64,000 nt of DNA. Origin: Bacilli bacterium (lineage in GTDB: Bacteria; Bacillota_I; Bacilli_A; RF39; UBA660). The position numbers and the translations under genes are program-made. Shown here piece by piece: positions 4,432 through 56,599 of the stretch; within the stretch, counting starts at the first letter, position 1; every line of letters starts with the position of its first letter. The stretch covers positions 18,946 to 82,945 of the forward strand of contig JAFYER010000001.1 in NCBI GenBank assembly GCA_017544165.1, in the 5' to 3' direction. The notes below the pieces were generated by a model. It had not been told where the DNA came from. It saw only the letters and a program-made list of their open reading frames with translations, and made no database searches.

Positions 4432-6303
4432 ATGACTTACGAGAATTTAAAAGATTATAAACAAAAATTATTAGAGTTATCTAAAGAGGATAAGAAAAAA
4501 AGAGATGAATATTTAAGACAGTTAGCTAATGGGACTATTCAAGGTCCTCCGGTTGGTTATCCAAGTGTTGATATACCTGCTTTGGCTTACTATAATTTTG
4601 AAGAGTATATTAAGGATAATCCAAAAGAAACAATTACTGAGGCTTTATTTAGAAATAACATAGACCATTTAAAGGATACGGCTATTGAGTATTTTGGAAC
4701 CAAAATTTCATATTATGAATTATTTAAAAATATTTATGCGTTAGTTGATGCGCTTGATGTAAGTGGTGTAAAAAAAGGTGATGGCATAATTGCTACTCTT
4801 CCAGGTATTCCTGAGTCAATGTATTCATTATATGCAGCTGGTTATTTAGGAGCTACATGTGTTTTCATGCTTCCATATTTAAAAAAAGAGTCGATGATTG
4901 CTGATATCAACAAAGATCATAGTAGAATACTTATAATTATGGATGTTTTGTATGAACAATATAAAGAAGTTTATGATGAAGTATTAGAAAAATCAACTTT
5001 AGAAAGAATTATTGTTGTGCCAACCCTTAATTCTTCGAAACTTGGTAAAATAAAAAAAGGTAAAAAATTTCCAGGAACAACACCTTATAATGATTTTGTC
5101 AAAGAAGGGGAAGGTAATATAACTCCCGACATATGTCCTTATGAGGAAAATATGCCAGTAGCAGTTGTCTATTCTTCGGGGACTACTGGTGATATCAAGG
5201 GTGTACTTCTTTCTCATGATTCAATTAATAATTCAGCACTTTCTTATTTGCCATTTGGTTTTGATTTAAAAAGAGGACAAAAGTTTTATCAAACTATACC
5301 AGTATGGACTTCAACTGGTTTAGTTGCTAATGGAACCTCACCGCTTTATTATGGTTCTATTTTACATCAAGATCCTAGATTTGACCCACTTACTTTCTCT
5401 AAAAATATTGGTAAGTCAAAATCTAACTGGGGCATTGGTACAACCGAATTGTTTAATGGTTTAGAGGAAATCAGTAAAAAGAAAGTATTTGGTTTACTTA
5501 CAAAAATGCATATTTTAGATTATACTAAACTTAATAATGCCTATGTCGGAGGAACATTATCAACTCCGAATGATAAGGCTAAATTAAATGAATTGTTCAA
5601 AAGAATTGGCAGTCCTGCTGTTGCTAATAGTAGTTATGGAACATGTGAAAATGGTTCAATTGTAACTGCTGAACTTAATGATTTACCACATTATGATTAT
5701 TCAGTTGGTATCCCAATTCCTGGAGCTACTATAATAGCTATTGATAAGGATGAACATGAACTTCCATACAATACACGTGGCGAACTTGCTGTAAGCACTA
5801 ATTGTGGGATGCTTCGTTACTATAATCGTCCTGATTTAAAAGATGTTTTTTATACTGACGAAACAGATGGCGTGAGATATAAACATACTGGTGATATTGG
5901 CTATGTCAGAAGTGATGGCTTTGTAATATATGAAGGAAGAGCTAATGACATTTCTATAGTAGATGGAACGCAAATCTATAATTTTGATGTAAAACAAGTT
6001 ATAATTAAAGATCCAGATGTGTTTGATTGTGAAGTATTTATGCATGATGAAAAATTATGTGCTCATTTAGTTTTCAAACATCCAGTTGAGGATATAAATC
6101 TCAAATTTGCTCAAATTCAAACTGAAATTATGCATGTTCTTAAAGATGATGTGTATGTACCAGAATTATTTAAAGTACGTACATCATTCCCAATGGCTGC
6201 GTCTACTAAAAGGAATTATAAGGCTTTAAAAGAGGAACAAGATGGATATGTTTATATTCCTAAAAATAGATATGCTAGAGAAAGAAAATGTGATATACTA
6301 TAA
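4432..6303 (+). CDS. AMP-dependent synthetase/ligase (adenylate-forming enzyme, substrate unknown)
   Basis: 623 aa. AMP-binding signature VVYSSGTTGDIKGVLLSH; downstream YKHTGDIGYVRSDGFVIYEGR. Confidence 0.8.
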   Translation: MTYENLKDYKQKLLELSKEDKKKRDEYLRQLANGTIQGPPVGYPSVDIPALAYYNFEEYIKDNPKETITEALFRNNIDHLKDTAIEYFGTKISYYELFKNIYALVDALDVSGVKKGDGIIATLPGIPESMYSLYAAGYLGATCVFMLPYLKKESMIADINKDHSRILIIMDVLYEQYKEVYDEVLEKSTLERIIVVPTLNSSKLGKIKKGKKFPGTTPYNDFVKEGEGNITPDICPYEENMPVAVVYSSGTTGDIKGVLLSHDSINNSALSYLPFGFDLKRGQKFYQTIPVWTSTGLVANGTSPLYYGSILHQDPRFDPLTFSKNIGKSKSNWGIGTTELFNGLEEISKKKVFGLLTKMHILDYTKLNNAYVGGTLSTPNDKAKLNELFKRIGSPAVANSSYGTCENGSIVTAELNDLPHYDYSVGIPIPGATIIAIDKDEHELPYNTRGELAVSTNCGMLRYYNRPDLKDVFYTDETDGVRYKHTGDIGYVRSDGFVIYEGRANDISIVDGTQIYNFDVKQVIIKDPDVFDCEVFMHDEKLCAHLVFKHPVEDINLKFAQIQTEIMHVLKDDVYVPELFKVRTSFPMAASTKRNYKALKEEQDGYVYIPKNRYARERKCDIL

Positions 6304-6321
6304 AAAGTAGGGTGATAGATA

Positions 6322-8100
6322 GTGATTGTTACTAAATTAACATGTTTAACTGTTTTTTGCATTATTTTCATGATTTCTTTGATAATTATCTATTTTTCAA
6401 AGCAAAGAATTAAAAGTGAAGAAAATCGTGTTTATAAAATAATGCTAGTTGTAAACTTAATAGGTATTTTTTTGCAAGTTGCTTCGAAATATTGTGCGTT
6501 TTATTATGATGTATTACCTCCAATATTTTGCCAATTTATGTTTAAATCATTCTTAGCTTACTTTAATGTATTTGCAATGCTTATTTTAAACTATGTTATT
6601 ATTTTAGTAATTCCTAAAGAAAAAATCAAAAAGGTCAATACTATTAATTATGTCTTTTTTGGTATTTTGTCTTTAATCACTTATTTTTTACCGATATCTG
6701 TTCATTGTGATTTAGAATCACAAGTTGCCTATACTTATGGCTTTGCGGTTACTTATTCATTTATTGTGGCAGGATTAGCATCATTAATCCTTCTTATATT
6801 GCTACTACCAAATTTGCGTAAAACTTCAAAAAAGAAAGTGTTACCACTTTTCATTTTCTTATTATTTTGCATGGTAGCTATTGCTATTCAAAAAGTAATG
6901 CCAGATCTTATGATGATGTGTTTTGTCGAAAGTTTCCTATGTTTTATAATGTTTCATACCATAGAAAATCCAGATATCATGATGCTTAACGAATTATATG
7001 AAAATCGAAGAATTATTGAAAGTAGCAATCAAGACATGTCTAATTTCTTATTTAAAATTTCTCAAGAGATTAGAAAACCAGTTAAGGAATTAATAGAGAT
7101 AAGCGATGGAAAAAATGATAATGAACTTAAGGAAATTAATAATATTAGTAAACATCTCGACTATTTAATCGATGATGCTCTTGATTTATCAGGTCTTTCT
7201 ACGAAAAAATTAAAACTATATAATAATAAATATAATATACGTAATTTATTTGACGAAATAAGAATTAAAGCTAAAAATAGTATAAATAAAGATACTAAAC
7301 TAGATTATAAAGTAAGTAGTAGTATTCCCGAGTATGTCTATGGCGATGGTGTAAGATTAAAGCAAATCTTAGGGGCTGTTGTAAATAACGCAATTGCTCA
7401 CACCGAAAAAGGGTATATTACCATTGAAATAAACACAATTATTAAATATGATATATGCCGTTTTATTATTGATGTTACCGATTCTGGAAAGGGCATGACA
7501 TTAGATAAAATTAATGAAATACTAAACTTAAAAGAACTTGATTTTGAAGCTGATTTGGATGATAATACCGATAATCTCAAAGTAGTTAAGGTACTTACCA
7601 ATAAAATTGGTGGAAGTTTCATGGTTCAAGCTGACGATAAGGGTACAACTGTAAGTATTACTATTGATCAAAAAATTGTGGAAAATACTGAAACTGAAAT
7701 ATCTAAAAAATTAGATTTATATGAAGAATCACTTCATTTAAATAAAAAGATAATGGTTGTCGATGAAAACATAAAAGAACTTACTCGGATAACCCATTTT
7801 CTCGAGGATAAAGGAAATATTGTATCTTCCTCATTATACGCAAATGATGTAATTGAAAAAATATACAAAAAATATAAATATGATTTAATTATTCTTGATG
7901 ATGAAACAAGTACTTCTAGCGCTTACGATGTTTTAAAAGAACTTAAGAAAATAGAAAAGTTTAATACACCAGTAGTTATAATGATTGATGATAATAAAGA
8001 ATTTATTAAGCTTCATTATTTAAAAGATGGATTTGCCGATGTCATAATGAAATCAAAACTCACAAGTGAACTTGAAAGAGTAATTAAAAAAGAATTATAA
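6322..8100 (+). CDS. membrane sensor kinase-like protein with HATPase_c and a C-terminal receiver-like domain; H-box histidine replaced by Gln
   Basis: 592 aa with about 6 N-terminal TM helices. N box VVNNAIAHTEKG, G1 DSGKGM, G2 GGSF. The H-box position reads FKISQEIRKPV. The receiver-like tail has VVDEN...LIILDDE. Confidence 0.7.
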   Translation: MIVTKLTCLTVFCIIFMISLIIIYFSKQRIKSEENRVYKIMLVVNLIGIFLQVASKYCAFYYDVLPPIFCQFMFKSFLAYFNVFAMLILNYVIILVIPKEKIKKVNTINYVFFGILSLITYFLPISVHCDLESQVAYTYGFAVTYSFIVAGLASLILLILLLPNLRKTSKKKVLPLFIFLLFCMVAIAIQKVMPDLMMMCFVESFLCFIMFHTIENPDIMMLNELYENRRIIESSNQDMSNFLFKISQEIRKPVKELIEISDGKNDNELKEINNISKHLDYLIDDALDLSGLSTKKLKLYNNKYNIRNLFDEIRIKAKNSINKDTKLDYKVSSSIPEYVYGDGVRLKQILGAVVNNAIAHTEKGYITIEINTIIKYDICRFIIDVTDSGKGMTLDKINEILNLKELDFEADLDDNTDNLKVVKVLTNKIGGSFMVQADDKGTTVSITIDQKIVENTETEISKKLDLYEESLHLNKKIMVVDENIKELTRITHFLEDKGNIVSSSLYANDVIEKIYKKYKYDLIILDDETSTSSAYDVLKELKKIEKFNTPVVIMIDDNKEFIKLHYLKDGFADVIMKSKLTSELERVIKKEL

Positions 8101-8108
8101 GCAAAATA

Positions 8109-8137
8109 AAACCCCAATAAATGGGGTTTATTTTTTT
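8109..8137. terminator. bidirectional rho-independent terminator between the kinase-like gene and rpmB
   Basis: AAACCCCA-ATAAA-TGGGGTTT, flanked by an A-run on the 5' side and a T-run on the 3' side. Confidence 0.8.
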
Positions 8138-8139
8138 GA

Positions 8140-8307
8140 TTAATTTTCTTTATTAAGAGTTCTTGCTTCTCTTGCTGAGATAATAACCTTTTGACCATTA
8201 ATTGTCTTTTTAACAAGATTTGGTTTTTGAACTTTTTTAGTAGCATTTAATGCATGAGAACGATTATTGCCTGTTAAAGGTTTTTTACTTGTAACTTTTG
8301 TAGCCAT
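8140..8307 (-). CDS. rpmB: 50S ribosomal protein L28
   Basis: MATKVTSKKPLTGNNRSHALNATKKVQKPNL... carries the L28 signature GNNRSHA.N.TKR. I place the start at the ATG preceded by AGGAGGG, not at the longer track ORF (8340). Confidence 0.9.
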   Translation of the reverse strand: MATKVTSKKPLTGNNRSHALNATKKVQKPNLVKKTINGQKVIISAREARTLNKEN

Positions 8308-8376
8308 AGTTTCCCTCCTAGTCGATAATAAGTTTATCAAAAAGAGGCTTAATTGTCAATTATCGATGGGTTCATA

Positions 8377-8405
8377 TTGTCAAAAAAATATTGATGTTAT
8401 ATAAT
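8377..8405 (+). promoter_or_regulatory. sigma-A-type promoter of paralogue 1
   Basis: TTGTCA-17 nt-TATAAT, located 17 nt upstream of the RBS region. Confidence 0.55.
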
Positions 8406-8421
8406 TACAATGAGGTAGCAT

Positions 8422-10230
8422 ATGAAAAAGAATAACATTGTATTATCTGTAATAGCCATTATAATGCTTTTAAGTATGTTTGCAATTGCATCATATGCTT
8501 TTTTTGATATAGGTAATTTAAATATAACCAATGTAACAAATTTTACTGCTACATCTGAACGAAATAACATGGTGTTTGATTCTCTTGGTGGAATAATGGA
8601 ATTAAATGTTACGGCCATCAATATGTCAAATAGTTTAAGTGGCAGTGTAGCGGCAGAAAATACAGCAATATTAACAGTTAACTTTCAAGCAAATACTACA
8701 GAAAGTATGGTATGTTCCTACGATATCATGTATGAATGGACGTCGACTGATAAATATCAAGTTCATTCAAATGGTGTAACTGAAAATGAATATACTATTC
8801 AAGCAAGTTTAGCAGCTAATGAACATGTAAGTGAGGGAGTAAACCATATAGCAAACGATTTAGATTTATCAGTAGCAGTAGGAAGTAATAATAGTGCAAT
8901 AGTTGTAAGTGGGGCGCAAATAGATAGTACGGGAACCTCGACGAGCACAGCAGTATGGACCATGACAAGTAAATTTTTTAATGTCGATGCTGATCAAGAC
9001 AATTTAGCTGGTAAAAATTATGCTGGAAGATTTAAAGTAGCAAATGTTTCTTGCGTATCAGGAACAAGACAATTAACTTTGGTGGAGTATATCTCCAATG
9101 AAGCACCAAGAAGTGGGACAGATGCAGTATCAAATAGTCCATGGATATTAACGGAAGATCATACAGGTGAATGGCGTTATGCTGGTAAAAACCCCGATAA
9201 TTATGTTCAGTTTAATGGAGAGCTTTGGCGAATAATTGGTGTCATGCCTAACATGACTTATTGTACCGGAACATATGGAACAGAAACCGAATGTAATACA
9301 ACCAAAACTGGAAATTTAATAAAAATAATAAGAAACCAAACTATCAGCAGTAGCACCCTAAGTTGGGATTATAAACAAACTGGCGTAGGCTCGTCCATAT
9401 CAGAATATGGTTCAAACGACTGGAGTGATAGCCAGTTAATGCTTATGTTAAATGGAACAAACTATTTAAAAACAGGATATGATGTAAATGGCAATAAATT
9501 ACATCAAAGTTATACTATAACAAGTAATGTAGTAAAAGGAAATGGATATAACTATTATAATGCAACATATAGCTATCTAGATGGAAATGGAACAACCGTA
9601 AATATTCCAAGTCAGGCTTCAACAAGCGCATATACAGCAACAAGTGGAAGTGTTTATAAGAAAATAGAAAGCACAGCCCTTGCTCAAATAGCAACAGTAA
9701 AATGGGATTTATATGGAACGAATAGTTATAATAATACCTCTATACCAAGTCTTGGAAGTCCAATCGACTTTTATAATAAAGAAAGAAATATAAATGATCT
9801 TGGAGCAGTATATATAGGAACAACACCAGAAAATAGACCAGTGTATTGGTATGGAAAGATAGGCCTAATGTATCCAAGTGATTATGGTTACGCCACAAAT
9901 GGTGGAAGTACATATAATAGAGATGCTTGTTTAGATTATAGAATGGTCGGCTGGCATAGTGGTGATTATAAAACGGATTGTGCAACAAATAGTTATCTCT
10001 GGTATAATAACATAACGTCTTCTGCTCCAAGGACAAGTGGAACAAATCAATGGACAATGTCTCCGTACTCTGGTCACGCGTACATTGTGTTCTATGTCAG
10101 TAGCAGCGGCGTCGTGCTCATCGTTAGCGCCTACACTACCTATGCGGTCCGCCCCGTCTTGTATCTGAAAGCTGAATTAGGGTTTGGCGGTGGAAATGGA
10201 ACATACAATTCACCATATTTACTAAGTTAG
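8422..10230 (+). CDS. surface protein, paralogue 1 of a 3-member family (N-terminal anchor/signal, C-terminal lectin-like module with VR-like segment)
   Basis: 602 aa with a hydrophobic N-terminus ending ..ASYAFFDIGN (TasA/SipW-type-like). Long blocks are near-identical to 18035..19837 and 49807..52056 (SPWILT.DH.GEWRYAGKNPDNY..FNGELWRIIGVMP; WSDSQLMLMLNG.NYLKTGYDV; VYWYGKIGLMYPSD.GYA). The C-terminal pattern QWT.SP.SG.A..VF.V...G.V....(V/A)RP.LYLKA resembles DUF1566/C-type-lectin-fold ends. Confidence 0.75.
   Translation: MKKNNIVLSVIAIIMLLSMFAIASYAFFDIGNLNITNVTNFTATSERNNMVFDSLGGIMELNVTAINMSNSLSGSVAAENTAILTVNFQANTTESMVCSYDIMYEWTSTDKYQVHSNGVTENEYTIQASLAANEHVSEGVNHIANDLDLSVAVGSNNSAIVVSGAQIDSTGTSTSTAVWTMTSKFFNVDADQDNLAGKNYAGRFKVANVSCVSGTRQLTLVEYISNEAPRSGTDAVSNSPWILTEDHTGEWRYAGKNPDNYVQFNGELWRIIGVMPNMTYCTGTYGTETECNTTKTGNLIKIIRNQTISSSTLSWDYKQTGVGSSISEYGSNDWSDSQLMLMLNGTNYLKTGYDVNGNKLHQSYTITSNVVKGNGYNYYNATYSYLDGNGTTVNIPSQASTSAYTATSGSVYKKIESTALAQIATVKWDLYGTNSYNNTSIPSLGSPIDFYNKERNINDLGAVYIGTTPENRPVYWYGKIGLMYPSDYGYATNGGSTYNRDACLDYRMVGWHSGDYKTDCATNSYLWYNNITSSAPRTSGTNQWTMSPYSGHAYIVFYVSSSGVVLIVSAYTTYAVRPVLYLKAELGFGGGNGTYNSPYLLS
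10061..10160 (+). other. GC-rich, A-poor, NNY-codon hypervariable (VR-like) segment inside paralogue 1
   Basis: By hand count, 57 G+C and 14 A in these 100 nt. Codons 10072-10143 are 21/24 NNY. Confidence 0.7.
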
Positions 10231-10249: not shown

Positions 10250-10278
10250 GTCCCTGCCGGCTCTTAATCCGGCAGGAC
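10250..10278 (+). other. GC-rich stem-loop 20 nt after the stop codon of paralogue 1
   Basis: CCTGCCGG (10253-10260) pairs with CCGGCAGG (10269-10276) across an 8-nt loop. No T-tract follows. Confidence 0.7.
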
Positions 10279-10286
10279 ATATATAT

Positions 10287-10475
10287 GGAGTAATCTTTAC
10301 AAAAAACGAAAGTTCAGGCAACGCCAACAATGTGTTCCGTGTGGTTGGAGATGGTTGTGTGAACAGCAACCCCGCTAACTACGCCAATGGGGCGCGCCCA
10401 ACATTATATCTAAATGCTAATACATTATTTAATGGTGGGACGGGCAAGTGGAATGATTCATATACAATTAAATAA
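10287..10475 (+). pseudogene. promoterless, start-less duplicate of the paralogue C-terminal module (AAY-rich cassette; TR-like or gene remnant)
   Basis: This frame (+2 relative to paralogue 1) is open over 10176-10475 and has no ATG. It encodes GVIFTKNESSGNANNVFRVVGDGCVNSNPANYANGARPTLYLNANTLFNGGTGKWNDSYTIK*. 7 of the 24 codons in 10317-10388 are AAC/AAT. G+C is 57% over 10321-10400. Confidence 0.6.
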
Positions 10476-17967: not shown

Positions 17968-18034
17968 ATTTGGTATTTGTATTATATAAAAATAATGATA
18001 TAATGTTATTGTGTAATAAGATAGGGTGTATCAA

Positions 18035-19837
18035 ATGAATAATAATAGGCCTAAAAAAGCTTACATAGTGATAATTGCTAGTATTATTCTTTTAGTATTA
18101 ATAGGAATTGCGTCTTATTCTTTTTTTAATATTGGAAATTTAAGCGTTTCAAATGTTGTAAATCTTAATGCTGTTACAGAGGAAAATAATATGGTGTTTG
18201 ATACATTGGGTGGGAATACTAGCCTTAATGTTACAATAGACAATATGCTTGAAAGTGCTGCAGGTACGATTGCTGCTGAAAACACTACGACACTTAATGT
18301 AACTTTTCAAGCAAATACAAGTTATAGTGTAGTTTGTTCTTATGATATTGTTTGGGAATGGACATCCACAGATAAATACCAAACACATACTTCTGGCGTA
18401 ACTGAAAATGAAATAACTATCCATGCAGAGTTAGATGGAAATGGGGCTGAAGGTACAAATAATATTCAAAGCGAAACGGATTTAGCCGATTTTGTAGGAA
18501 GCCAAACTAGCAAAACTGTAGTAAGTAGAGCCGCAATTGCTTCAACTGGAAGCACTGCAAATACGGTAACATGGTATTTAACTACTAGGTTTTATAATGT
18601 CGATGCTGATCAAAGCACTTTAGCTGGAAAAAATTATACGGGCAGATTCAAAGTAACTAATGTTGATTGTCAAAAAGGTACAGTACAAGTATCATTAGCA
18701 AATCATATTAGACATAACTTGCCTAAAAGTGGAACCGATGTAGTATCAAATAGTCCATGGATATTAACATCTGATCATGCTGGTGAATGGCGATATGCAG
18801 GTAAAAATCCAGATAACTACATATCTTTTAATGGTGAATTATGGCGAATAATAGGGGTAATGCCTGGCATGACTTATTGTACTGGAGAATATGGAAACGC
18901 AAATGAATGTGATACCACCGCAATCGGTAGTTTAGTTAAAATAATTAGAAATGATGCTTTAGGTATTTTTTCCTGGGACTATAAGCAAATAGGCGTAGGA
19001 TCATCGTTGTCTGATAATGGTTCTAGTGACTGGAGCGATAGTCAGTTAATGCTAATGTTAAACGGAATTAATTATTTAAAAACTGGATATGATGTTGATG
19101 GAAATAAATTACATGATGATTATTTCAATTTTCAAGGAATTATTAAGGATGCAAGTGGGAATGGATATTATAACGTATCGAAGCATTATTTAGATGAAAA
19201 TGGAACAACAATTTATATGCCGGCCAGTGCAACAATTAATGATGGATATACTGGAACTAGTGGGACAATTTCAAAGAAGATAGAAAGTAGTGCGTTTTCT
19301 CAAATAGCAACAGTAAAATGGGATTTGTATGGAGCAAATAATTATTCAACAGCTGCTGAGGGAAACACTTCCGCATTATATAATAAAGAAAGGAATATTA
19401 ATAATACAGGATCAGTATATATAGGAACAGCATCAGAAAAAAGAGCAGTATATTGGTATGGGAAAATAGGCTTAATGTATCCAAGCGATTTGGGATATGC
19501 AACTAACGGAGGAAGCACTTATGATAGAAACACATGTTTAGGATATCAAATAAAAGGATGGAATGTAAGTTCTTACAAAACGGATTGTATGAGAAATAGT
19601 TATTTATGGTTTTTAAATATAACTTCCTCTTCTCCAGGTAATTCAGGAAAAAACCAATGGACAATGATTCAAAATTCTAGTGTTTCTAGCAATATAATAT
19701 CTATTATATCATTAGGATTGATAAGTGATTTAAACGCAAAAGGTTCAGCTAATGTTAGACCCGCTTTGTATTTAAAAGCTGATACGCAGTTTGTTGGTGG
19801 AACGGGTACTTATAACGATCCATATACAATAGAGTAA
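18035..19837 (+). CDS. surface protein, paralogue 2 (AT-rich, non-VR-like C-terminal segment)
   Basis: About 600 aa. I chose the ATG at 18035, preceded by AGGGTG (the track ORF starts at GTG 18026). It shares the conserved blocks of paralogues 1 and 3. The C-terminal segment NQWTMIQNSSVSSNIISIISLGLISDLNAKGSANVRPALYLKA is encoded by ordinary AT-rich codons. Confidence 0.75.
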   Translation: MNNNRPKKAYIVIIASIILLVLIGIASYSFFNIGNLSVSNVVNLNAVTEENNMVFDTLGGNTSLNVTIDNMLESAAGTIAAENTTTLNVTFQANTSYSVVCSYDIVWEWTSTDKYQTHTSGVTENEITIHAELDGNGAEGTNNIQSETDLADFVGSQTSKTVVSRAAIASTGSTANTVTWYLTTRFYNVDADQSTLAGKNYTGRFKVTNVDCQKGTVQVSLANHIRHNLPKSGTDVVSNSPWILTSDHAGEWRYAGKNPDNYISFNGELWRIIGVMPGMTYCTGEYGNANECDTTAIGSLVKIIRNDALGIFSWDYKQIGVGSSLSDNGSSDWSDSQLMLMLNGINYLKTGYDVDGNKLHDDYFNFQGIIKDASGNGYYNVSKHYLDENGTTIYMPASATINDGYTGTSGTISKKIESSAFSQIATVKWDLYGANNYSTAAEGNTSALYNKERNINNTGSVYIGTASEKRAVYWYGKIGLMYPSDLGYATNGGSTYDRNTCLGYQIKGWNVSSYKTDCMRNSYLWFLNITSSSPGNSGKNQWTMIQNSSVSSNIISIISLGLISDLNAKGSANVRPALYLKADTQFVGGTGTYNDPYTIE

Positions 19838-48310: not shown

Positions 48311-48410
48311 AGCAAATGCAACCGCTCTTGGATGGTGCGGTATATAAATTATTCCAAATGCGAAATGTTAATCGCTCCCGGATGGTGCGATCAATAAAAT
48401 ATTCCGGAGG
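48311..48410 (+). ncRNA. type III antitoxin-like RNA: two tandem ~50-nt repeats
   Basis: The unit AAATG..(A/T)(A/C)CGCTC..GGATGGTGCG(G/A)....ATAAA.TATTCC occurs twice with a 50-nt period (GGATGGTGCG at 48330 and 48380; ATTCC at 48351 and 48401). Each unit has a CCGC/GCGG or TCGC/GCGA mini-stem. Confidence 0.6.
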
Positions 48411-48419
48411 AAAATTTCA

Positions 48420-48453
48420 GAAAACTTTTATCTTTTGATAGAGTTTTCTTTTT
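48420..48453 (+). terminator. intrinsic terminator between antitoxin repeats and toxin ORF
   Basis: GAAAACTTTTATC-TTTT-GATAGAGTTTTC followed by TTTTT. This placement is typical of type III TA loci. Confidence 0.7.
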
Positions 48454-48491
48454 CTTTGTGATAAAATTGCTTTACTAGGAGGTTTTGGATT

Positions 48492-48959
48492 ATGGAAGTA
48501 AGAACAGGATACATTTATCATATAAAAGATGAGTTTTTTGATAAGATAAATGATAAAGGTTTAATGATTAACCATGAAAATGGCAAATCAAGGCCCACAT
48601 ATTTTACTATTAAAGATAAAGATATATTATGGTTTATTCCTTTAAGTAGTAAAGTTGAAAAATATGAAAAAATAATAGATTCAAAAATAAAAAAGTATGG
48701 TTCTTGTTAATCTATTATGATTAGCGAAATTGCTGGTAAAAAATCAGTTATCTTGATTCAAAATGCTTTTCCAACCTTAGAAAAATATATTGATCACCCC
48801 CATATGTTGGATGGAAAACCACTAAAAGTTATTAATACGCTCAAAAATGAAATATTAGATAATTTCAATTATTTAATGGAATTAAAAAAAGCTGGTAAAA
48901 ACTTATTTTTTCCTGATGTTGACAAAATAAAACAAATTATGTTAGAGGAATTAGAATGA
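48492..48959 (+). pseudogene. ToxN/AbiQ-family (type III TA) endoribonuclease toxin interrupted by one in-frame TAA
   Basis: Track ORFs 48492..48710 and 48717..48959 are in the same frame, separated only by TAA (48708-48710) plus two codons. The N-terminal half has the family pattern (YIYHIKDEFFDKI...GKSRPTYF.....WFIPLSSKVEKY). The combined length is about 155 aa. Confidence 0.55.
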
Positions 48960-49018: not shown

Positions 49019-49129
49019 AGCAAATGTTAGCCGCTTATGGATGGCGCGGGTTATAAATGATTCCAATCGCGAAATGTTAGTCGCTTACGGGTGGTGCGAG
49101 TTATAAATGATCCCGATAGAAAATGTTAG
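49019..49129 (+). ncRNA. second (orphan) copy of the antitoxin repeat array, 2 full units plus a partial third
   Basis: AAATGTTAG occurs at 49022, 49072 and 49121. GGATGGCGCG and GGGTGGTGCG are spaced 50 nt apart. A TATAAT lies at 48988-48993. No toxin ORF follows. Confidence 0.55.
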
Positions 49130-49162
49130 GAAACTTTTATCTTTTGATAGAGTTTTCTTTTT
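49130..49162 (+). terminator. terminator copy 2 (near-identical to 48420-48453)
   Basis: GAAACTTTTATC-TTTT-GATAGAGTTTTC followed by TTTTT. The following ~25 nt are also identical to copy 1 except for one base. Confidence 0.65.
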
Positions 49163-49216
49163 CTTTGCGATAAAATTGCTTTACAATAATATAATTAAAA
49201 TTAGAATAATATTTTA

Positions 49217-49745: not shown

Positions 49746-49806
49746 AAGCAACCATAATTGGTTGTTTTTTTTTGCGTTTTAGGTTATATTTATTATAGGT
49801 GTGAAA

Positions 49807-52056
49807 ATGAAAAAAGTATCAATATATATAGTGATTATTATTGCAGTACTAGCAGTTATTATTGGCCTTGCGGCTTATGCAATGCGAGCTCCAATTGTTA
49901 ATGTTGAAAACTTGAACACTAACACTTATTTGGGTGGACAAGTATCACTTACAACTTCTGGTGGTGGAGCAATGTCTAGCAGTATATCCACACTTTTAAT
50001 GTCGGAAGCTAGTGCTAATAATAAAATAGAAGTTGCTAATAACATTTTAAATGTAACACTTACTACCTCTAATGATAAACAAATATGTTGCTCATACGAT
50101 ATTGTTTGGGAATGGGATCAAACAAACGTAACAGCAAATCAATATAGTTTAACATCGGGTGCTACAAAAGAATTTACCTTATCAGGCTCTTATAGTGATT
50201 ATTATGGAAATTCTACAGCCAATACATTAGGTGGTTCAAATATTTCTTGGTTCGAAAGACAATTACAAAACTATAATGCATCAGCACGTTCTTCATCAAT
50301 GACTAGAGCTACAATTTGCAATAATCCAACCCAATCCTCCAAAGTTAGAACACATTCATGGAATCTTGCGACAAATTTTTATAATCTTAATATAAATCAA
50401 GATGCTTTTAAACAATCAGCATTTTCTGGTAAAGCTAAAGTTGCTAATGTTTCATGTACAAATCAAAAAACATTTGCCGATTACTTAGCAAGTGGTGCTC
50501 CAAGAAGTGGAATCGATGCTGTATCAAGTAGTCCATGGATATTAACATCAGATCATCCAGGTGAATGGCGCTATGCCGGCAAAAACCCAGATAACTATAT
50601 ATCTTTTAATGGAGAACTATGGCGAATAATCGGCGTAATGCCAGATATGACATATTGTACAGGTGAATATGGTAATGCAAATGAGTGCAATACAACTGCA
50701 ACAGGAAGTTTAGTTAAAATAATTAGAAACGATTCATTAGGATCATTTTTATTAGATTATAAACAAACAGGAGTAGGCTCATCCATAACAACTGCTGGGT
50801 CCAACGATTGGAGTGATAGTCAATTAATGTTAATGTTAAATGGAACAAATTATTTAAAAACAGGGTATGATGTAAATAATACTAAGTTGCATAATTCCTA
50901 TACAATAACAAGTAATATAGTCGCAGGAAATGGATATAATTTTTACAATGCAACATATAGCTATTTAGATGGGAATGGAACAACAGTATATGTACCTAGT
51001 AGTGCAACAACAAGTAGCTATACCGCAACAAGTGGAACGGTCCCAAAGAAAATAGGAACAACAGCACTATCCCAAATAGCAACCGTAAAATGGGATTTAT
51101 ATGGAACAAGTAGTTTTACAACTGCAGCAGAAGGAAGTCCAGCAGCCTTTTATAATAAAGAAAGAAATATTGGTAACACAGGTGCTGTTTATAATGTAAC
51201 TGCAACTGGACGTGAAAAAAGAGCAGTATATTGGTATGGAAAGATAGGACTAATGTATCCAAGTGATTATGGATATGCTAGTAATGGCGATGGAAGTACG
51301 TATAGTAGAAGTGATTGTATGGGAACAGAAATGTATAACTGGGATAGCGCAGAAGCATGTTATGAAAATGATTGGATGTATTACGTAAATGCAACAGCCT
51401 CATCAGTGGGAACAAGTAACACGTATCAATGGGCCTTAAGCCCGCATTCAGGTAATGCCGCCAATGCTTTCTGCGTGGATATTGATGGTTATGTGGCCAA
51501 CTGCAGCGTCGTCGACGACTCCAATGGGGTCCGGACCGTCTTGTATCTTAAAGCTGATACAACATTTACTGGTGGATCAGGTACATATAATGATCCTTTT
51601 ATAATAGATTCAAGATTGTATTGGCTTGCTTATGGTACTTATACATATCCAAATCATGGTGGTACTTTATATACTAGTGGCTCAGATACTGATTCTCTCG
51701 TATATATCGGTCAGGATACAAAACATTATGCTTGCGCAACTATTCAAAATCAAGAAATATGTTTATCTCAGCCATATGCACAATATGGTCTTAGGGGTCA
51801 CACTGTAGGTACAAATTTTACTACTGAACAGCAAAATAGTATTGCTAATGCTTTGAAAAAAGTCTTTGCCGATGCGGGAGTTAGCGTTGATATTGAGAAC
51901 GATTGTTATAAGAATTCTGGATATGTTAATTGCTACGATCCTAATGCTGAAATATATTGTGGGGTTAATAGTGATGGATCTATTGACTGTGGTGATGAAG
52001 AGGAAAATTACGAATATTGTTGGCTTAACCCTGATGGTACAGCTGAGTGTGGATAA
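49807..52056 (+). CDS. surface protein, paralogue 3 (divergent N-terminal third, VR-like segment, extra Cys-rich C-terminal extension)
   Basis: About 749 aa (ATG 49807 after AGGTG). The central 350 aa are highly similar to paralogues 1 and 2. After ..VRTVLYLKADTTFTGGSGTYNDPFII there is an additional ~170 aa with 10 or more Cys (..CYKNSGYVNCYDPNAEIYCGVNSDGSIDCG..CWLNPDGTAECG). Confidence 0.75.
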   Translation: MKKVSIYIVIIIAVLAVIIGLAAYAMRAPIVNVENLNTNTYLGGQVSLTTSGGGAMSSSISTLLMSEASANNKIEVANNILNVTLTTSNDKQICCSYDIVWEWDQTNVTANQYSLTSGATKEFTLSGSYSDYYGNSTANTLGGSNISWFERQLQNYNASARSSSMTRATICNNPTQSSKVRTHSWNLATNFYNLNINQDAFKQSAFSGKAKVANVSCTNQKTFADYLASGAPRSGIDAVSSSPWILTSDHPGEWRYAGKNPDNYISFNGELWRIIGVMPDMTYCTGEYGNANECNTTATGSLVKIIRNDSLGSFLLDYKQTGVGSSITTAGSNDWSDSQLMLMLNGTNYLKTGYDVNNTKLHNSYTITSNIVAGNGYNFYNATYSYLDGNGTTVYVPSSATTSSYTATSGTVPKKIGTTALSQIATVKWDLYGTSSFTTAAEGSPAAFYNKERNIGNTGAVYNVTATGREKRAVYWYGKIGLMYPSDYGYASNGDGSTYSRSDCMGTEMYNWDSAEACYENDWMYYVNATASSVGTSNTYQWALSPHSGNAANAFCVDIDGYVANCSVVDDSNGVRTVLYLKADTTFTGGSGTYNDPFIIDSRLYWLAYGTYTYPNHGGTLYTSGSDTDSLVYIGQDTKHYACATIQNQEICLSQPYAQYGLRGHTVGTNFTTEQQNSIANALKKVFADAGVSVDIENDCYKNSGYVNCYDPNAEIYCGVNSDGSIDCGDEEENYEYCWLNPDGTAECG
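51441..51545 (+). other. GC-rich NNY-codon hypervariable (VR-like) segment inside paralogue 3
   Basis: By hand count, 57 G+C in 51441-51540. Codons 51451-51525 are 23/25 NNY. Confidence 0.7.
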
Positions 52057-52150: not shown

Positions 52151-52462
52151 ATGGTTATGAGTAAGAAGGGTCAAGCACTTGTTGAGTTTATAATTATATT
52201 ACCAGTTTTTTTAATGCTGCTTCTTGCAGTTTTTGATTATGTCAAAATAATTCAGACAAAAATGGATTTAGAATCGGTTATTGAAGATTATTCGTTAAAT
52301 GAAGAATATGAATTATCTAAAGATATTGTTTTGAAAGAAGAAACTTCTGGAGGAGTAAAAACTTATACTCTTTCTAAATCAGTGGAAATAACATCACCAG
52401 TTCTTATTCCTATTATATCCAAATCATATGATGTTAAAGTAACAAGGAGCATGTATGAATAA
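52151..52462 (+). CDS. TadE-like pseudopilin
   Basis: 103 aa. KKGQALVEFIIILPVFLMLLLAVFD matches the TadE N-terminal motif. Confidence 0.7.
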   Translation: MVMSKKGQALVEFIIILPVFLMLLLAVFDYVKIIQTKMDLESVIEDYSLNEEYELSKDIVLKEETSGGVKTYTLSKSVEITSPVLIPIISKSYDVKVTRSMYE

Positions 52463-52814
52463 GCATGGTCAAGTACTAGTTACTTTTGTAATTATGGTAC
52501 CTTTAATACTTCTATTAATATCGGTATTAATCGAGCTTAGCTTAATTAGTTATAATAAACATCATTTATATTCTTTAACTAAAACAATTATTGCATCTTG
52601 TATTGATAATCCTAATAAAAATGATATAATTAATTTATATAATAAAAATGGTGTAAATGATGAAATAAATGTTAATTTAGAAGAAGGCATAGAAATTTTT
52701 TTTAATCATAAAATAGAAGGTTTTTTTAAAAAAGAATATGATATTAAAATTGATATAGTAGGTAAAAAATCTGGTGACAAGATAATTTATACGAAGGGGT
52801 CAAGAAATGAATAG
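52455..52814 (+). CDS. TadE/TadG-like pilus assembly protein
   Basis: 119 aa. NKHGQVLVTFVIMVPLILLLISVLIE is a pseudopilin-like N-terminus. Confidence 0.55.
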   Translation: MNKHGQVLVTFVIMVPLILLLISVLIELSLISYNKHHLYSLTKTIIASCIDNPNKNDIINLYNKNGVNDEINVNLEEGIEIFFNHKIEGFFKKEYDIKIDIVGKKSGDKIIYTKGSRNE

Positions 52815-53574
52815 TGTAAAGGGAAAAAGCATTTGTATATTCTCTGCGAAAGGTGGAGTTGGTAAAACTGTTACAGCAGTTAACTTAGCTGGTGTTTTTT
52901 CGCGTTTACAAAAAAAGGTTGTTATTATCGATTTTGACCTTACAGGTGGTGGAGTAGCAGCTTATCTTAATAAACCGTTTGAAAAAAACTCTTATAATTT
53001 TGTCGAAGATTATGCTAATAACCATTATCAATCATTAAAAAATTATGTGACTAAATTTGATGATGACATTGACTTTTTGGCATCTCCGAAAGATCCTAGA
53101 CAAGGAACGAGAATATCTGCTTCTTACATCGAAGTAATATTAGAAAAAGCTACTAATGAATACGATATTGTTATCGTGGATACTAATCATACATTAAGTG
53201 AGTTTAATGTAACGCTTTTAGATAAATGTGATGAAGTTTTACTTGTCGTATCAAATGATATGTTAGATTTAAAAAATACTCGTAATTTAATTCATATTTT
53301 TAAAGATGCCGAAAAGACAAATTATAAAGTTATGCTCAATAATTCTGTTCATCCTTCAAAAAAATATTATTCACTTTATGATGTTAAAAGTATGATTAAA
53401 GCTAATATTGATTATTTAATAGATTCATCATTTTTCTTAAAAACAATGGATCAATATATATCTGATGGAGTCATTTTAACAAAAGAAGCTAAAATGCCTA
53501 AAGTATATCCTAAAGTATATCGAGCATTTCTTACAATATGTAATGATTTAATGGAGTTGGAACATGAAAAATAA
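52807..53574 (+). CDS. tadZ: TadZ/CpaE-like ParA/MinD-family ATPase
   Basis: 255 aa. Deviant Walker A SAKGGVGKT. The gene sits directly upstream of tadA. Confidence 0.75.
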   Translation: MNSVKGKSICIFSAKGGVGKTVTAVNLAGVFSRLQKKVVIIDFDLTGGGVAAYLNKPFEKNSYNFVEDYANNHYQSLKNYVTKFDDDIDFLASPKDPRQGTRISASYIEVILEKATNEYDIVIVDTNHTLSEFNVTLLDKCDEVLLVVSNDMLDLKNTRNLIHIFKDAEKTNYKVMLNNSVHPSKKYYSLYDVKSMIKANIDYLIDSSFFLKTMDQYISDGVILTKEAKMPKVYPKVYRAFLTICNDLMELEHEK

Positions 53575-54886
53575 TTTAAGAAATATGTTTGAGTATGCTG
53601 ATAATGATGCTAAAGTTAATACGATAAATGATTATGATATTTTTAAAGATAAAGAGCTACTTGATAAACTGCGTACTAAAATCGTTGAAAATATAATTGA
53701 TGCAAATATCTCAGATGAAGAAGATTTAAAAACATATATAGATGATGAAATTGAAAGAACCATTGCGGATTATGATTTATCTACATTAGAAAGGAACCAT
53801 TTATTTACTTTGATTGATAATGAAATAAATGGATATGGGCCCTTAACTGAACTTTTAAAGGATAGTAATATTACGGAAATTATGGTTAATTCGCCGAAAG
53901 AAATATATATAGAAATTGATGGTAATTTAATAAAGGATGAAAGTATATCATTTATTAATAATGCTCATATCATAAGAACTATTCAAAGATTAATTGAACC
54001 AATGGGAAGAACGATTGACTCTAATAGTCCAATGGTTGACTCTAGACTTAAAGATGGTTCACGTATTAATGCGGTAATACCACCGCTTTCGACTAAAGGG
54101 CCAGTTATTACCATTCGTAAGTTTGCTCCTTCGATGAATCATATCGAAGAACTTATTAGAGTAGGAACAATGACTCCCGAAATGGCTGAGTTTTTGCAAG
54201 CTGCCGTCAAAGCTAAGCTAAACATAATAGTGTGCGGTGGTACTGGTTCTGGTAAAACAACACTTTTAAATGTATTAAGTAGCTTTATTGGTATAAGTGA
54301 AAGAATTGTAACTATCGAAGATGCAGCCGAACTTAGATTAAAACAACCGCATGTTATTGGTCTTGAAACAAGAACAACAAATTATGAAAAAAGTGGCGAA
54401 ATAACAATAAGAGATTTGGTACGTAATTCCCTAAGAATGCGTCCTGATCGAATAATTGTCGGTGAGGTAAGAGGTAAGGAAGCATTTGATATGCTACAAG
54501 CAATGAATACAGGTCATGAAGGAAGTTTGACAACACTGCATGCTAATGGTCCGCTTGACGCATTACATCGCCTTGAAACGATGGTTTTAATGGCAAGTAT
54601 AGATTTACCGGTTAAGGCTGTTCGTGAGTATATCGAAGCTGCTATAAACTTAGTAGTCAATATTGAAAGGTTATCTGATGGTAAAAGAAAAATAACTTCA
54701 ATAAGTGAAATAATTGGTTTTACTGAAGATGAAATTAAACTACAAGATATCTTTAATTTTCAAAGACTTGGTCTTACACAAAATGGGGAAGTAAATGGTC
54801 AATTTGTCAAGATGCATGGCAAACCAAAATGTTTAAATCAAATTGTCGCATATGGTAATCCTCAGATAAAAAATATATTTAATTAG
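53564..54886 (+). CDS. tadA: TadA/CpaF secretion ATPase
   Basis: 440 aa. [48 protein letters not shown]. Confidence 0.9.
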
Positions 54887-54896
54887 AAAGGTAAAA

Positions 54897-55904
54897 ATGG
54901 ATAAACTAGTAATAAGACTTTTAATTAAACAACTTACAATATGTAGTATTTTCTTAATACTAGTTTTTCTTTTTGTGAAAATTTATTATTCCGTATTAAG
55001 TGAAAAAAGAATATCAGCATTTGCCATGGACAATAAAACTAATGATGAAATATCAATCGTTGATATTATAATTCGGTTTATTAAGAAAATAATTGGTTTT
55101 TTTGCAAAAATATTAAAAAAATCATCATTATTAAAAAAGTACGGTGATTCTCTTTCTAAGTATTTAATATATATTAATACTAAAATCGAAGGAATGAGCT
55201 TAATTGCGATAAAGTTTATTATCATGATACTTATGCAAATAATTTATATTTTTACAGTACTTATTGATAGTAATAATTTTAATATTATGACATTTTTACT
55301 TATTTCGATAGTATCATTTTTATTTATAGATTTATTAATTTTAATTGTTTATCGTAATCAAAGAAAACTTATTGAAGAACAATTATTACAAGCAATTGTC
55401 ATTATGAATAGTGCTTTTAAAAGTGGAAAGAATATTACGGAAGCAATTATGATTGTTAAAAAAGAATTACCAAGTCCCATCAAAGATGAATTTGATATTA
55501 TTTACAAGGATATTAGTTATGGGCTTTCTTTAGAGGATTCTTTTTCAAGATTTTATAATCGGGTTAAACTTGAGGAAGCTAAATATATTATGGCATCTTT
55601 ATCACTACTTTCCAAAACAGGCGGTAATATTGTAACTGTCTTTAATATGATAGAAAAAAATTTCTATAATCGTCTAAAGATCCGAAATGAACTAGGCTCA
55701 CTTACATCCTCAAGTAAATTTTTATATAGGATGCTTATGGTTATGCCATTTATTTTTATTTTAGTAATTGTAGCGCTAAGTCCTGATTATTTTGCGCCTT
55801 TTTATAATAGTAAAATCGGTTTTGTTTTAATGATGATTATGTTATTTTTATACATTATATATTTACTTATCATCCGAAGAATAATGAGGGTGGATGAAGT
55901 ATGA
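54897..55904 (+). CDS. tadB: TadB-like type II secretion F-family membrane protein
   Basis: 335 aa, polytopic. T2SSF-like region (AFKSGKNITEAI... LSKTGGNI). Confidence 0.75.
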   Translation: MDKLVIRLLIKQLTICSIFLILVFLFVKIYYSVLSEKRISAFAMDNKTNDEISIVDIIIRFIKKIIGFFAKILKKSSLLKKYGDSLSKYLIYINTKIEGMSLIAIKFIIMILMQIIYIFTVLIDSNNFNIMTFLLISIVSFLFIDLLILIVYRNQRKLIEEQLLQAIVIMNSAFKSGKNITEAIMIVKKELPSPIKDEFDIIYKDISYGLSLEDSFSRFYNRVKLEEAKYIMASLSLLSKTGGNIVTVFNMIEKNFYNRLKIRNELGSLTSSSKFLYRMLMVMPFIFILVIVALSPDYFAPFYNSKIGFVLMMIMLFLYIIYLLIIRRIMRVDEV

Positions 55905-56599
55905 AAAACGATATATTTATTAAAAGGTTAATGTCTCGTAAAGAGATTAGTAGAGTTGAAAAGAAAATATTGATGCTTGGCCCAAATACGAAATTAGAAA
56001 CTTACCATTATTTAAATCTCAAATTTATAACTTTATTTTTTACATTTATTCTATTATTATTTGGAAAGCTCGGTTTTTTTGTAGCACCAATTGTGGTATT
56101 TGCTTTGTATTTTTTATACGATTATATATTTTTAACAATTCCAATAAAAAAAAGAGCTAACACTTTAGAACATGATGCTATCTTCTTTTTTGAAGTTTTA
56201 GTTCTTACTTTACAAAGTGAAAATAATCTTAAATTATGTTTAGAAACTGCAAGTAATGCAATTGATAGTGAAATGTCTTCGGAAATAAAAGAGACTTTAA
56301 AAGAAATGCAACTTGGTAAATCTCTAACTGAGGCTCTTGAGGATCTTCGCTTAAGAATTCCTTCGAAAACGGTCAATAATGTAATACTAAACTTAATTGA
56401 GACAAGTGAATATGGTAATTCGATAATCGATGCTCTTAATAATCAAATAGAATATATTACTGATAAAAGAATCCTGGCAATAAAGGGTCAAATAAATAAA
56501 ATGCCTACTAAGATTTCTGTTATCTCTGTACTTGTTTTTATTCCTTTAGTATTAATTTTGATACTAGGTCCAGTATTTATCAATTATTTATTTAAGTAA
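55901..56599 (+). CDS. tadC: TadC-like type II secretion F-family membrane protein
   Basis: 232 aa with a T2SSF-like region (LQLGKSLTEALEDL... ETSEYGNSI). The start overlaps the tadB stop. Confidence 0.7.
   Translation: MKNDIFIKRLMSRKEISRVEKKILMLGPNTKLETYHYLNLKFITLFFTFILLLFGKLGFFVAPIVVFALYFLYDYIFLTIPIKKRANTLEHDAIFFFEVLVLTLQSENNLKLCLETASNAIDSEMSSEIKETLKEMQLGKSLTEALEDLRLRIPSKTVNNVILNLIETSEYGNSIIDALNNQIEYITDKRILAIKGQINKMPTKISVISVLVFIPLVLILILGPVFINYLFK

Follow-up and report, generated by a model that had tools for sequence, protein, structure and literature searches.

Within a 64,000-nucleotide stretch of the Bacilli bacterium assembly GCA_017544165.1 (contig JAFYER010000001.1, positions 18,946 to 82,945; hereafter the window), a protein-coding gene, P3, contains a short G+C-rich, adenine-poor segment that we refer to as VR3, the variable region (VR) of paralogue 3. 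As judged from its sequence, VR3 is the product of a diversity-generating retroelement (DGR) and is related to the template repeat (TR) of a DGR that we located elsewhere in the genome. We consider it probable that VR3 was once written by a DGR in a paralogue of the element's present target, and that it has since been uncoupled from the element and is now fixed. In DGRs, a reverse transcriptase (RT) acting with Avd copies the RNA of the TR and misincorporates only opposite adenines, and the resulting cDNA replaces the VR of the target. AAY codons of the TR are thereby turned into NNY codons of the VR, and the scaffold codons of the TR avoid A. An A-avoiding scaffold combined with AAY-to-NNY conversion therefore leaves an A-poor, G+C-rich island in a genome of 29% G+C. 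The features of P3 that bear on this finding are the following.

49801..52056, + strand: P3 (paralogue 3), an open reading frame (ORF) of 751 amino acids, the subject of the family alignment, structural models, Foldseek searches and neighbourhood comparison
51439..51537, + strand: VR3, 33 codons homologous to the 32-codon TR, A-poor, about 55% G+C, NNY codons
51526..51537, + strand: G+C-rich 3' box GGGGTCCGGACC, with 2 differences from GGCGTCCGGCCC
51538..51562, + strand: 3' flank of VR3, GTCTTGTATCTTAAAGCTGATACA, 24 nt identical to the flank of the active target
51610..52056, + strand: C-terminal extension of P3, 148 amino acids (residues 604-751) with 8 Cys; short paralogues have a stop codon here, followed by a G+C hairpin

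A preliminary description of the stretch, made from the sequence alone, had reported a compositional island of 57% G+C at 51441-51545. The island is real, with a measured value of 55.2% in place of that figure, compared with approximately 36% for the P3 gene and 29% for both genome and window. In a 100-nt profile, G+C peaks at 53% over VR3 and runs at about 30-40% through the remaining P3 gene, and the A content of the patch is 19% versus 35% for the gene. The 25 codons listed in that description could be reproduced when counted from 51451, and comprise 23 NNY codons, as had been stated, of which 13 are NNC. The NNC background is 8.1% of the 13,450 codons in the 22 other ORFs of the window. 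Among 25-codon windows in those ORFs, the maximum was 9 NNC codons, and a count of 23 NNY was reached by only 1 of 13,425. The corresponding binomial probabilities for the VR3 codons are 1e-8 (NNC) and 7e-5 (NNY). The 13-mer CCGTCTTGTATCT, previously described as a 3' boundary shared with paralogue 1, has two copies in the window, at 10154 and 51536, and no others. P3 begins with a membrane anchor and a beta-rich region; the VR is part of the DUF6273-like domain that comes next, and the Cys-rich tail completes the protein. The VR is thus internal to the protein, as had been proposed, since homology to the short paralogues stops at residue 603 and the 148-residue tail with its 8 Cys lies beyond it. 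The earlier figure of ~170 residues for this extension holds if one counts from the end of the VR.

An RVT_1 RT, a bAvd and a TR, the kind of components for which the preliminary description had proposed a search, are present in the genome outside the window; within the window we detected neither an RT nor Avd, and likewise no accessory ORF and no counterpart of the region downstream of the TR. The DGR is carried by each of two contigs (L011 and L013) in the order target paralogue (PX), G+C hairpin, TR, two small ORFs, bAvd and RT, with the following features on L011.

4695-6458: PX, the active target gene
After the PX stop codon: G+C hairpin, CCTGCCGG-N8-CCGGCAGG
6531-6626: TR, 96 nt, AAC-rich
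7428-7793: bAvd, profile E 2e-7
7783-8847: RVT_1 reverse transcriptase, E 2e-18, with IGNMSSQ and YMDD motifs

On L011 the TR and its cognate VR differ at 17 of 33 TR adenines and at 0 of 63 non-adenine positions (Fisher p 4e-10), and on L013 at 13 of 33 and 0 of 63 (p 1e-7). Here and below, the Fisher p describes enrichment of mismatches at TR adenines, with 33 adenines and 63 non-adenines as denominators. When the two contigs, which come from two samples, were compared over 15,483 aligned bp, we found 17 differences, all of which fall within 6295-6370, that is the cognate VR, and all of which are at TR adenines. Between-sample changes confined in this way to the cognate VR and to TR adenines are the signature of a working DGR, and the element is active on its adjacent target. 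The proteins P0017 and P0125, encoded on these contigs, both of 587 residues and a pair in a 90%-identity clustering, differ at 13 residues, every one of them between 534 and 559. In the PDB, the RT is matched best by 8ub7_A, which we take to be the bRT of BPP-1. The genes flanking the element are housekeeping genes (rimM, trmD, nusB, xseA/B), which indicates that the DGR is chromosomal rather than obviously part of a prophage.

The assignment of window and DGR to one genome relies on sample and bin membership. L011 and L013 were assembled from samples SAMN15830042 and SAMN15830045, which also gave contigs L002 and L001; these match the window at 100% identity across 17-20 kb. The window proteins are on a 173,496-bp contig with IKR74_… proteins of one NCBI metagenome-assembled genome (MAG), and P0017 is IKR74_01830 of the same MAG. 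Bin membership is good evidence, not absolute proof, that the two share a genome.

VR3 aligns codon for codon with this true TR/VR pair, which bears out its earlier reading as a DGR-type VR. Mismatches to the TR occur at 16 of 33 adenines and at 12 of 63 non-adenines (Fisher p 0.003), and VR3 has one extra codon, a 3-nt insertion that adjoins the (AAC)4 run of the TR. It is this homology to the TR, together with the adenine-enriched mismatches and the AAY-to-NNY signature, that identifies VR3 as DGR-derived. VR3 does not differ from a TR of the same genome solely at adenines, given the insertion and the 12 non-adenine mismatches, which are located at TR positions 18, 29, 30, 39, 44, 45, 47, 54, 71, 72, 87 and 94. 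One complete homing event would have reset both these 12 positions and the length, and the present TR therefore cannot have produced VR3. Because the mismatches extend to the 3' end of VR3, a recent homing event that began there and remained partial is excluded as well. The final 12 bases common to TR and VR in the active cassette are GGCGTCCGGCCC, from which the corresponding box of VR3 departs as listed above. Two further paralogues in the window, with the elements that surround one of them, served for comparison.

8422..10230, + strand: P1 (paralogue 1), 602 amino acids
10060..10155, + strand: VR1 in P1, 32 codons (the TR length), 54% G+C, a diverged VR
10253..10276, + strand: G+C hairpin after the P1 stop codon, CCTGCCGG-N8-CCGGCAGG, with a single occurrence in the window
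10305..10400, + strand: TRc, an orphan TR-derived copy, AAC/AAT-rich, with no avd or RT
18026..19837, + strand: P2 (paralogue 2), 603 amino acids
19667-19762, + strand: VR-equivalent of P2, 28% G+C, with no likeness to the TR

P1, P2 and P3 share 50-60% pairwise identity. VR1 mismatches the TR at 19 of 33 adenines and 14 of 63 non-adenines (p 0.0007), and the VR of a further paralogue, P0130, at 23 of 33 and 12 of 63 (p 1e-6). The P2 VR-equivalent shows no such enrichment, with mismatches at 20 of 33 adenines and 37 of 63 non-adenines (p 0.52). The codon alignment agrees with the preliminary description that VR3 is one codon longer than the segment of paralogue 1. The same description had argued that a single shared template cannot explain both VR-like segments, and the comparison with the TR leads to the same result, as VR3 carries 12 non-adenine mismatches plus the 3-nt insertion and VR1 carries 14 non-adenine mismatches. 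We also observed that P0130 (IKR74_02695), in the same genome, carries its VR as a patch of 69% G+C (L016, 5615-5710). In its post-stop hairpin, the loop and the inner part of the stem differ from the other copies, as if the structure had been conserved and not the sequence.

We looked for a template that would account for VR3 better than the known TR. In the ~250 kb of DNA examined, nothing fits VR1, VR3 or the P0130 VR better. Ungapped scans of the window for a VR1 or VR3 template gave no match at ≥55% identity, a pattern fixing the third codon positions of VR3 together with its scaffold codons had no match in JGI metagenomes, and pattern scans of IMG/VR for a VR3-compatible template or cognate TR likewise returned none. 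The RT homologue search recovered P0134, which is 100% identical and present on 7 contigs; the next match, at 75%, belongs to another organism, hence there is no sign of a second close RT. Two candidate templates were rejected: TRc has 22-23 non-adenine mismatches to VR3 and 29 to VR1, and the TR of a sister species (L021), considered as a better fit to the 33-codon VR3, has ~25 as judged by eye. GTDB genomes contained one related MAG, Tb.RUG.19, which has AT-rich VR equivalents and no RT detectable by motif in the flanks.

The comparison of near-identical genomes indicates that VR3 is static. Not one base of VR3 differs among the four assemblies compared (the window, L004, L014 and L015); elsewhere in the P3 gene, L004 and L014 carry one point mutation each, at 50873 and 51024. 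The exact P3 protein is present on 6 contigs. The two samples whose cognate VR differs have the same VR1 and the same orphan TR copy, and VR1 is identical in L001-L003. We found no adenine-patterned variation of VR3 among these genomes, which were compared as consensus assemblies and not as reads. Present diversification of VR3, as implied by its earlier description as VR-like, is thus unsupported: all four assemblies have the same VR3, whereas the VR of the active sister gene differs between samples, and no cognate template was found in the DNA examined or in JGI metagenomes.

The region downstream of VR3 also differs from that of the other targets. The G+C hairpin follows the stop codons of PX, P1 and P0130. 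It is absent near VR3, where there is instead a weak AT-rich inverted repeat of 7 bp (TTGTATC/GATACAA) within the 3' flank; the PX flank has the same repeat. VR3 has no post-stop hairpin because the P3 ORF runs on into the 148-residue tail. In BPP-1, the target needs an initiation of mutagenic homing (IMH) sequence followed by a hairpin or cruciform, plus 5' homology (PMC3240598). The DGR described here may make use of the distal G+C hairpin.

On the reading that we favour, VR3 would have acquired its sequence through past retrohoming from an ancestor of the known TR, or would have received it from a DGR-written paralogue by inheritance or gene conversion. Thereafter it would have been disconnected, likely by changes in the G+C box and by loss of the hairpin when the Cys-rich tail was fused, and it would now specify a single, unchanging binding surface of a surface protein that is linked to the Tad pilus locus. 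Several observations weigh against this account. Only ~100 kb of the genome is covered, and a second TR or second DGR matching VR3 is possible. Minor VR3 variants would not show in consensus assemblies, and the assemblies are all near-clonal, such that 'static' spans a short time only. VR3 retains the 24-nt 3' flank and the weak inverted repeat, and its G+C content is still high for a supposedly drifting region in a 29% G+C genome. In curated collections of DGRs, accepted targets with up to 11 non-A differences and with 3-nt indels opposite AAC repeats have been described and read by the authors as possible non-canonical mutagenesis (PMC5758913).

A rival reading makes VR3 a remote target on which a DGR still acts, either with a second TR from an unsampled part of the genome or with the known TR through rare non-canonical retrohoming. 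We regard this as unlikely, even though DGRs work in trans on distant targets and some accepted targets carry 7-11 non-A differences as well as 3-nt indels (PMC5758913). The identity of the 24-nt 3' flank with that of the active target speaks for a live target, as does the fact that P1, P3 and P0130 all keep G+C-rich VRs. Slippage is conceivable for the extra codon by the (AAC)4 run, and the sister-species TR, being one AAC codon longer, shows that template length varies. One full homing event from the known TR would nevertheless erase 12 non-A mismatches that span the whole of VR3 including its 3' end. VR3 is moreover invariant in four assemblies and on 6-7 contigs while the cognate VR varies, the G+C hairpin of three other targets is missing, and neither a second close RT in the homologue search nor a template in the DNA examined was found. 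It is similarly improbable that P3 was never a retrohoming target and that the patch came by gene conversion with a DGR-written paralogue, or by duplication within the family, followed by drift. The 81% identity of VR3 and TR at non-adenines is about that of P3 and PX DNA in the 25 codons downstream (81%) and little above the 71% of the 100 codons upstream, and the genome holds at least 8 paralogues of the family, all of which fits such an origin. So does the decay of the VR in the sister-species orthologue of P3 to 34 codons and 41% G+C. Old inheritance should however have led to decay as seen in P2 (28% G+C) or P0050 (44% G+C). With these data, such an origin is indistinguishable from past retrohoming, and the sequence is DGR-made either way.

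The possibility that the island is unrelated to any DGR, being a compositional quirk of motif selection or a horizontally acquired fragment, is one to which we give almost no weight. The scaffold SG.A..VF.V...G.V....A......VRPVLYLKA is conserved across the family, as selection on a protein motif would have it. P2 and P0050 encode the same scaffold in AT-rich codons (VR G+C of 28% and 44%, respectively), and the P2 case in particular implies that the protein motif does not force a G+C island. In addition, VR3 aligns as DNA with a proven TR, its mismatches are enriched at adenines and its NNC excess has a probability of 1e-8. The TR/VR comparisons and the L011-L013 differences have already effectively refuted a non-DGR origin.

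Known DGR systems provide close parallels. The Treponema denticola DGR has seven remote targets (Wu et al. 2018, PMC5758913), and the element described here resembles it in being cellular and not obviously part of a prophage, with one adjacent target, remote paralogues bearing VR-homologous 3' regions, and AAY-to-NNY conversion. Remote targets are assigned where the differences from the TR lie only or almost only at adenines, whereas VR3 has 12 non-A differences (the survey maximum is 11; PMC5758913) plus an indel, and shows no variation. Non-A substitutions are found in 23% of DGRs and indels in 7%, the latter often of 3 nt opposite AAC repeats (Wu et al. 2018, PMC5758913). As in those non-canonical cases, one target here is purely A-to-N and another combines several non-A differences with a 3-nt indel next to a run of AAC; unlike in them, we have a between-sample comparison, in which the canonical target is changing and the non-canonical one is fixed. 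That the cognate VR changes while VR3 stays fixed favours decay of an abandoned target over an additional mutagenic mode. Remote targets, non-adenine differences and 3-nt indels are thus already documented, and VR3 lies just past the known extreme. As at the BPP-1 Mtd site (Guo et al. 2011, PMC3240598), a G+C box closes the TR/VR homology and an 8-bp G+C inverted repeat lies downstream in the active cassette and in two paralogues. The differences from that site (PMC3240598) are that the hairpin is here ~95 nt past the VR and after the stop codon, that its loop is of 8-9 nt and is not GRNA, and that VR3 has none.

The cassette that the preliminary description had placed at 10317-10388 is indeed TR-derived: the hairpin/TRc leader and the 5' half of TRc are ~93% identical to the active cassette (L011 6458-6565), and the 3' half has diverged and continues into a fragment resembling the C-terminus of a gene, within a 63-residue ORF at 10284-10475. 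A possible AGGA ribosome-binding site accompanies this ORF. TRc is without the conserved region found downstream of the active TR. In another species, the P1 orthologue (L020) is accompanied by the hairpin and by what is left of a TR, from which an internal stretch has been deleted. The sister-species DGR (L021) has the same layout, an RT of 75% identity and a TR that is one AAC codon longer, from which it follows that template length changes over time. The sister-species P3 orthologue, P0002, is in the same greA-P3-tadE neighbourhood (L024); many codons of its decayed VR are non-NNY.

Two small ORFs between TR and bAvd (L011 6786-7070 and 7060-7440) are conserved in the sister-species DGR (L021 547-831 and 821-1213). 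One of them, of 126 residues, matches MutS domain I below the threshold (E 0.0015; 19.2 bits against a cut-off of 20.6), and its product could serve the DGR as an accessory factor with a relation to mismatch binding. Approximately 150 nt directly 3' of the TR (L011 6627-6780; L021 ~396-540) are well conserved between the two DGRs, whose RTs are 75% identical. This conservation suggests that the region is probably a functional, structured RNA 'spacer' used for priming. An Rfam search of the hairpin, TR and spacer region gave no meaningful match.

A database search returned 511 relatives of the family, mostly from metagenome bins of uncultured 'Bacilli bacterium'. Among the matches listed, more than 80 of 120 relatives are hypervariable between QWT.SP.S and VRPVLYLKA and have the scaffold SG.A..VF.V...G.V....A. 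The Cys-rich extension of P3 (residues 604-751) is common to a long subfamily, for example P0126 and P0002-P0011.

Residues 225-625 of P3 were modelled on a 113-sequence alignment, which gave a predicted local distance difference test score (pLDDT) of 93.9 and a predicted template modelling score (pTM) of 0.92. A full-length model from a 40-sequence alignment was unusable for the VR domain (pLDDT <50); in it, the Cys-rich tail reached a pLDDT of 70-95. Foldseek searches with the 225-625 model matched several BFVD phage proteins annotated as DUF6273 (E 3e-7 to 1e-4, probability 1.0), with TM-scores of just 0.28-0.36. With the Pfam DUF6273 profile (PF19789, cut-off 23.5 bits), P3 had no match at E ≤ 0.1, and P1 and PX scored 18.8 and 21.0 bits. 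The modelled VR-bearing domain of P3 thus appears to resemble DUF6273, with the VR at the C-terminal end of the domain. DUF6273 has been reported as a target scaffold of phage DGRs with the VR at its C-terminal end (PMC11792537). The predicted fold and the VR position match those of the Faecalibacterium prophage targets (PMC11792537); unlike them, the proteins described here are chromosomal and membrane-anchored, have many paralogues, belong to an uncultured Bacilli lineage and match the Pfam profile below threshold or not at all, and P3 adds a Cys-rich domain after the VR. Among solved structures, the model is matched best by PDB entry 9qa6, the IgA peptidase from Thomasclavelia ramosa (Foldseek E 5e-8; 16% identity across 357 columns). 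The match hints that the VR-bearing domain might be a module binding host glycoproteins or immunoglobulins in gut Bacillota. C-type lectins (CD94/NKG2A, MBP-C), whose fold is that of DGR targets of the Mtd/TvpA type, gave only weak local PDB matches to the model, with E > 1.

Downstream, P3 is followed by a set of pilus genes.

52151-56599: Tad/Flp-type pilus genes (TadE-like, CpaE/TadZ-like ATPase, CpaF-like ATPase, TadB/C-like)

This set begins ~95 nt after P3, which stands at the head of the operon, and P3 may be a component of the pilus or an adhesin linked to it. On the other side of P3, just upstream of greA, a direct repeat of 154 nt (84% identical; 48322-48475 and 49031-49184) brackets two small ORFs (48492-48710 and 48717-48959), perhaps as a module of small size that was inserted.

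As a signature in raw sequence, the A-poor, NNY-rich island closing a conserved scaffold, on which the preliminary description relied, does find DGR-made sequence, but it cannot tell a live target from a fixed one. In this genome the two states occur side by side, with the live one caught changing in natural samples. Tentatively, and as a speculation that goes beyond the history of VR3 itself, one could imagine a scheme of 'diversify, then freeze', in which one DGR-coupled copy explores specificities and useful duplicates are uncoupled and banked as fixed receptors or adhesins. If this were the case, then uncoupling would occur via changes in the G+C box and hairpin or via domain fusion, and P3 would be a banked variant that gained a Cys-rich domain by fusion and was taken up at the head of the Tad operon. 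The paralogues would represent stages of the process, with PX active, P0130, P1 and P3 still G+C-rich and mismatched, and P0050 and P2 decayed, and the orphan TR copy beside P1 would be a remnant of it. The locus offers a natural system for studying what causes the uncoupling of targets, at what rate abandoned VRs decay, and whether fixed variants are retained for a function, for example with the Tad pilus. For annotation, the members of the family, of which uncultured Bacilli of gut and rumen have more than 100, can be given the label of surface proteins of the DGR target type.

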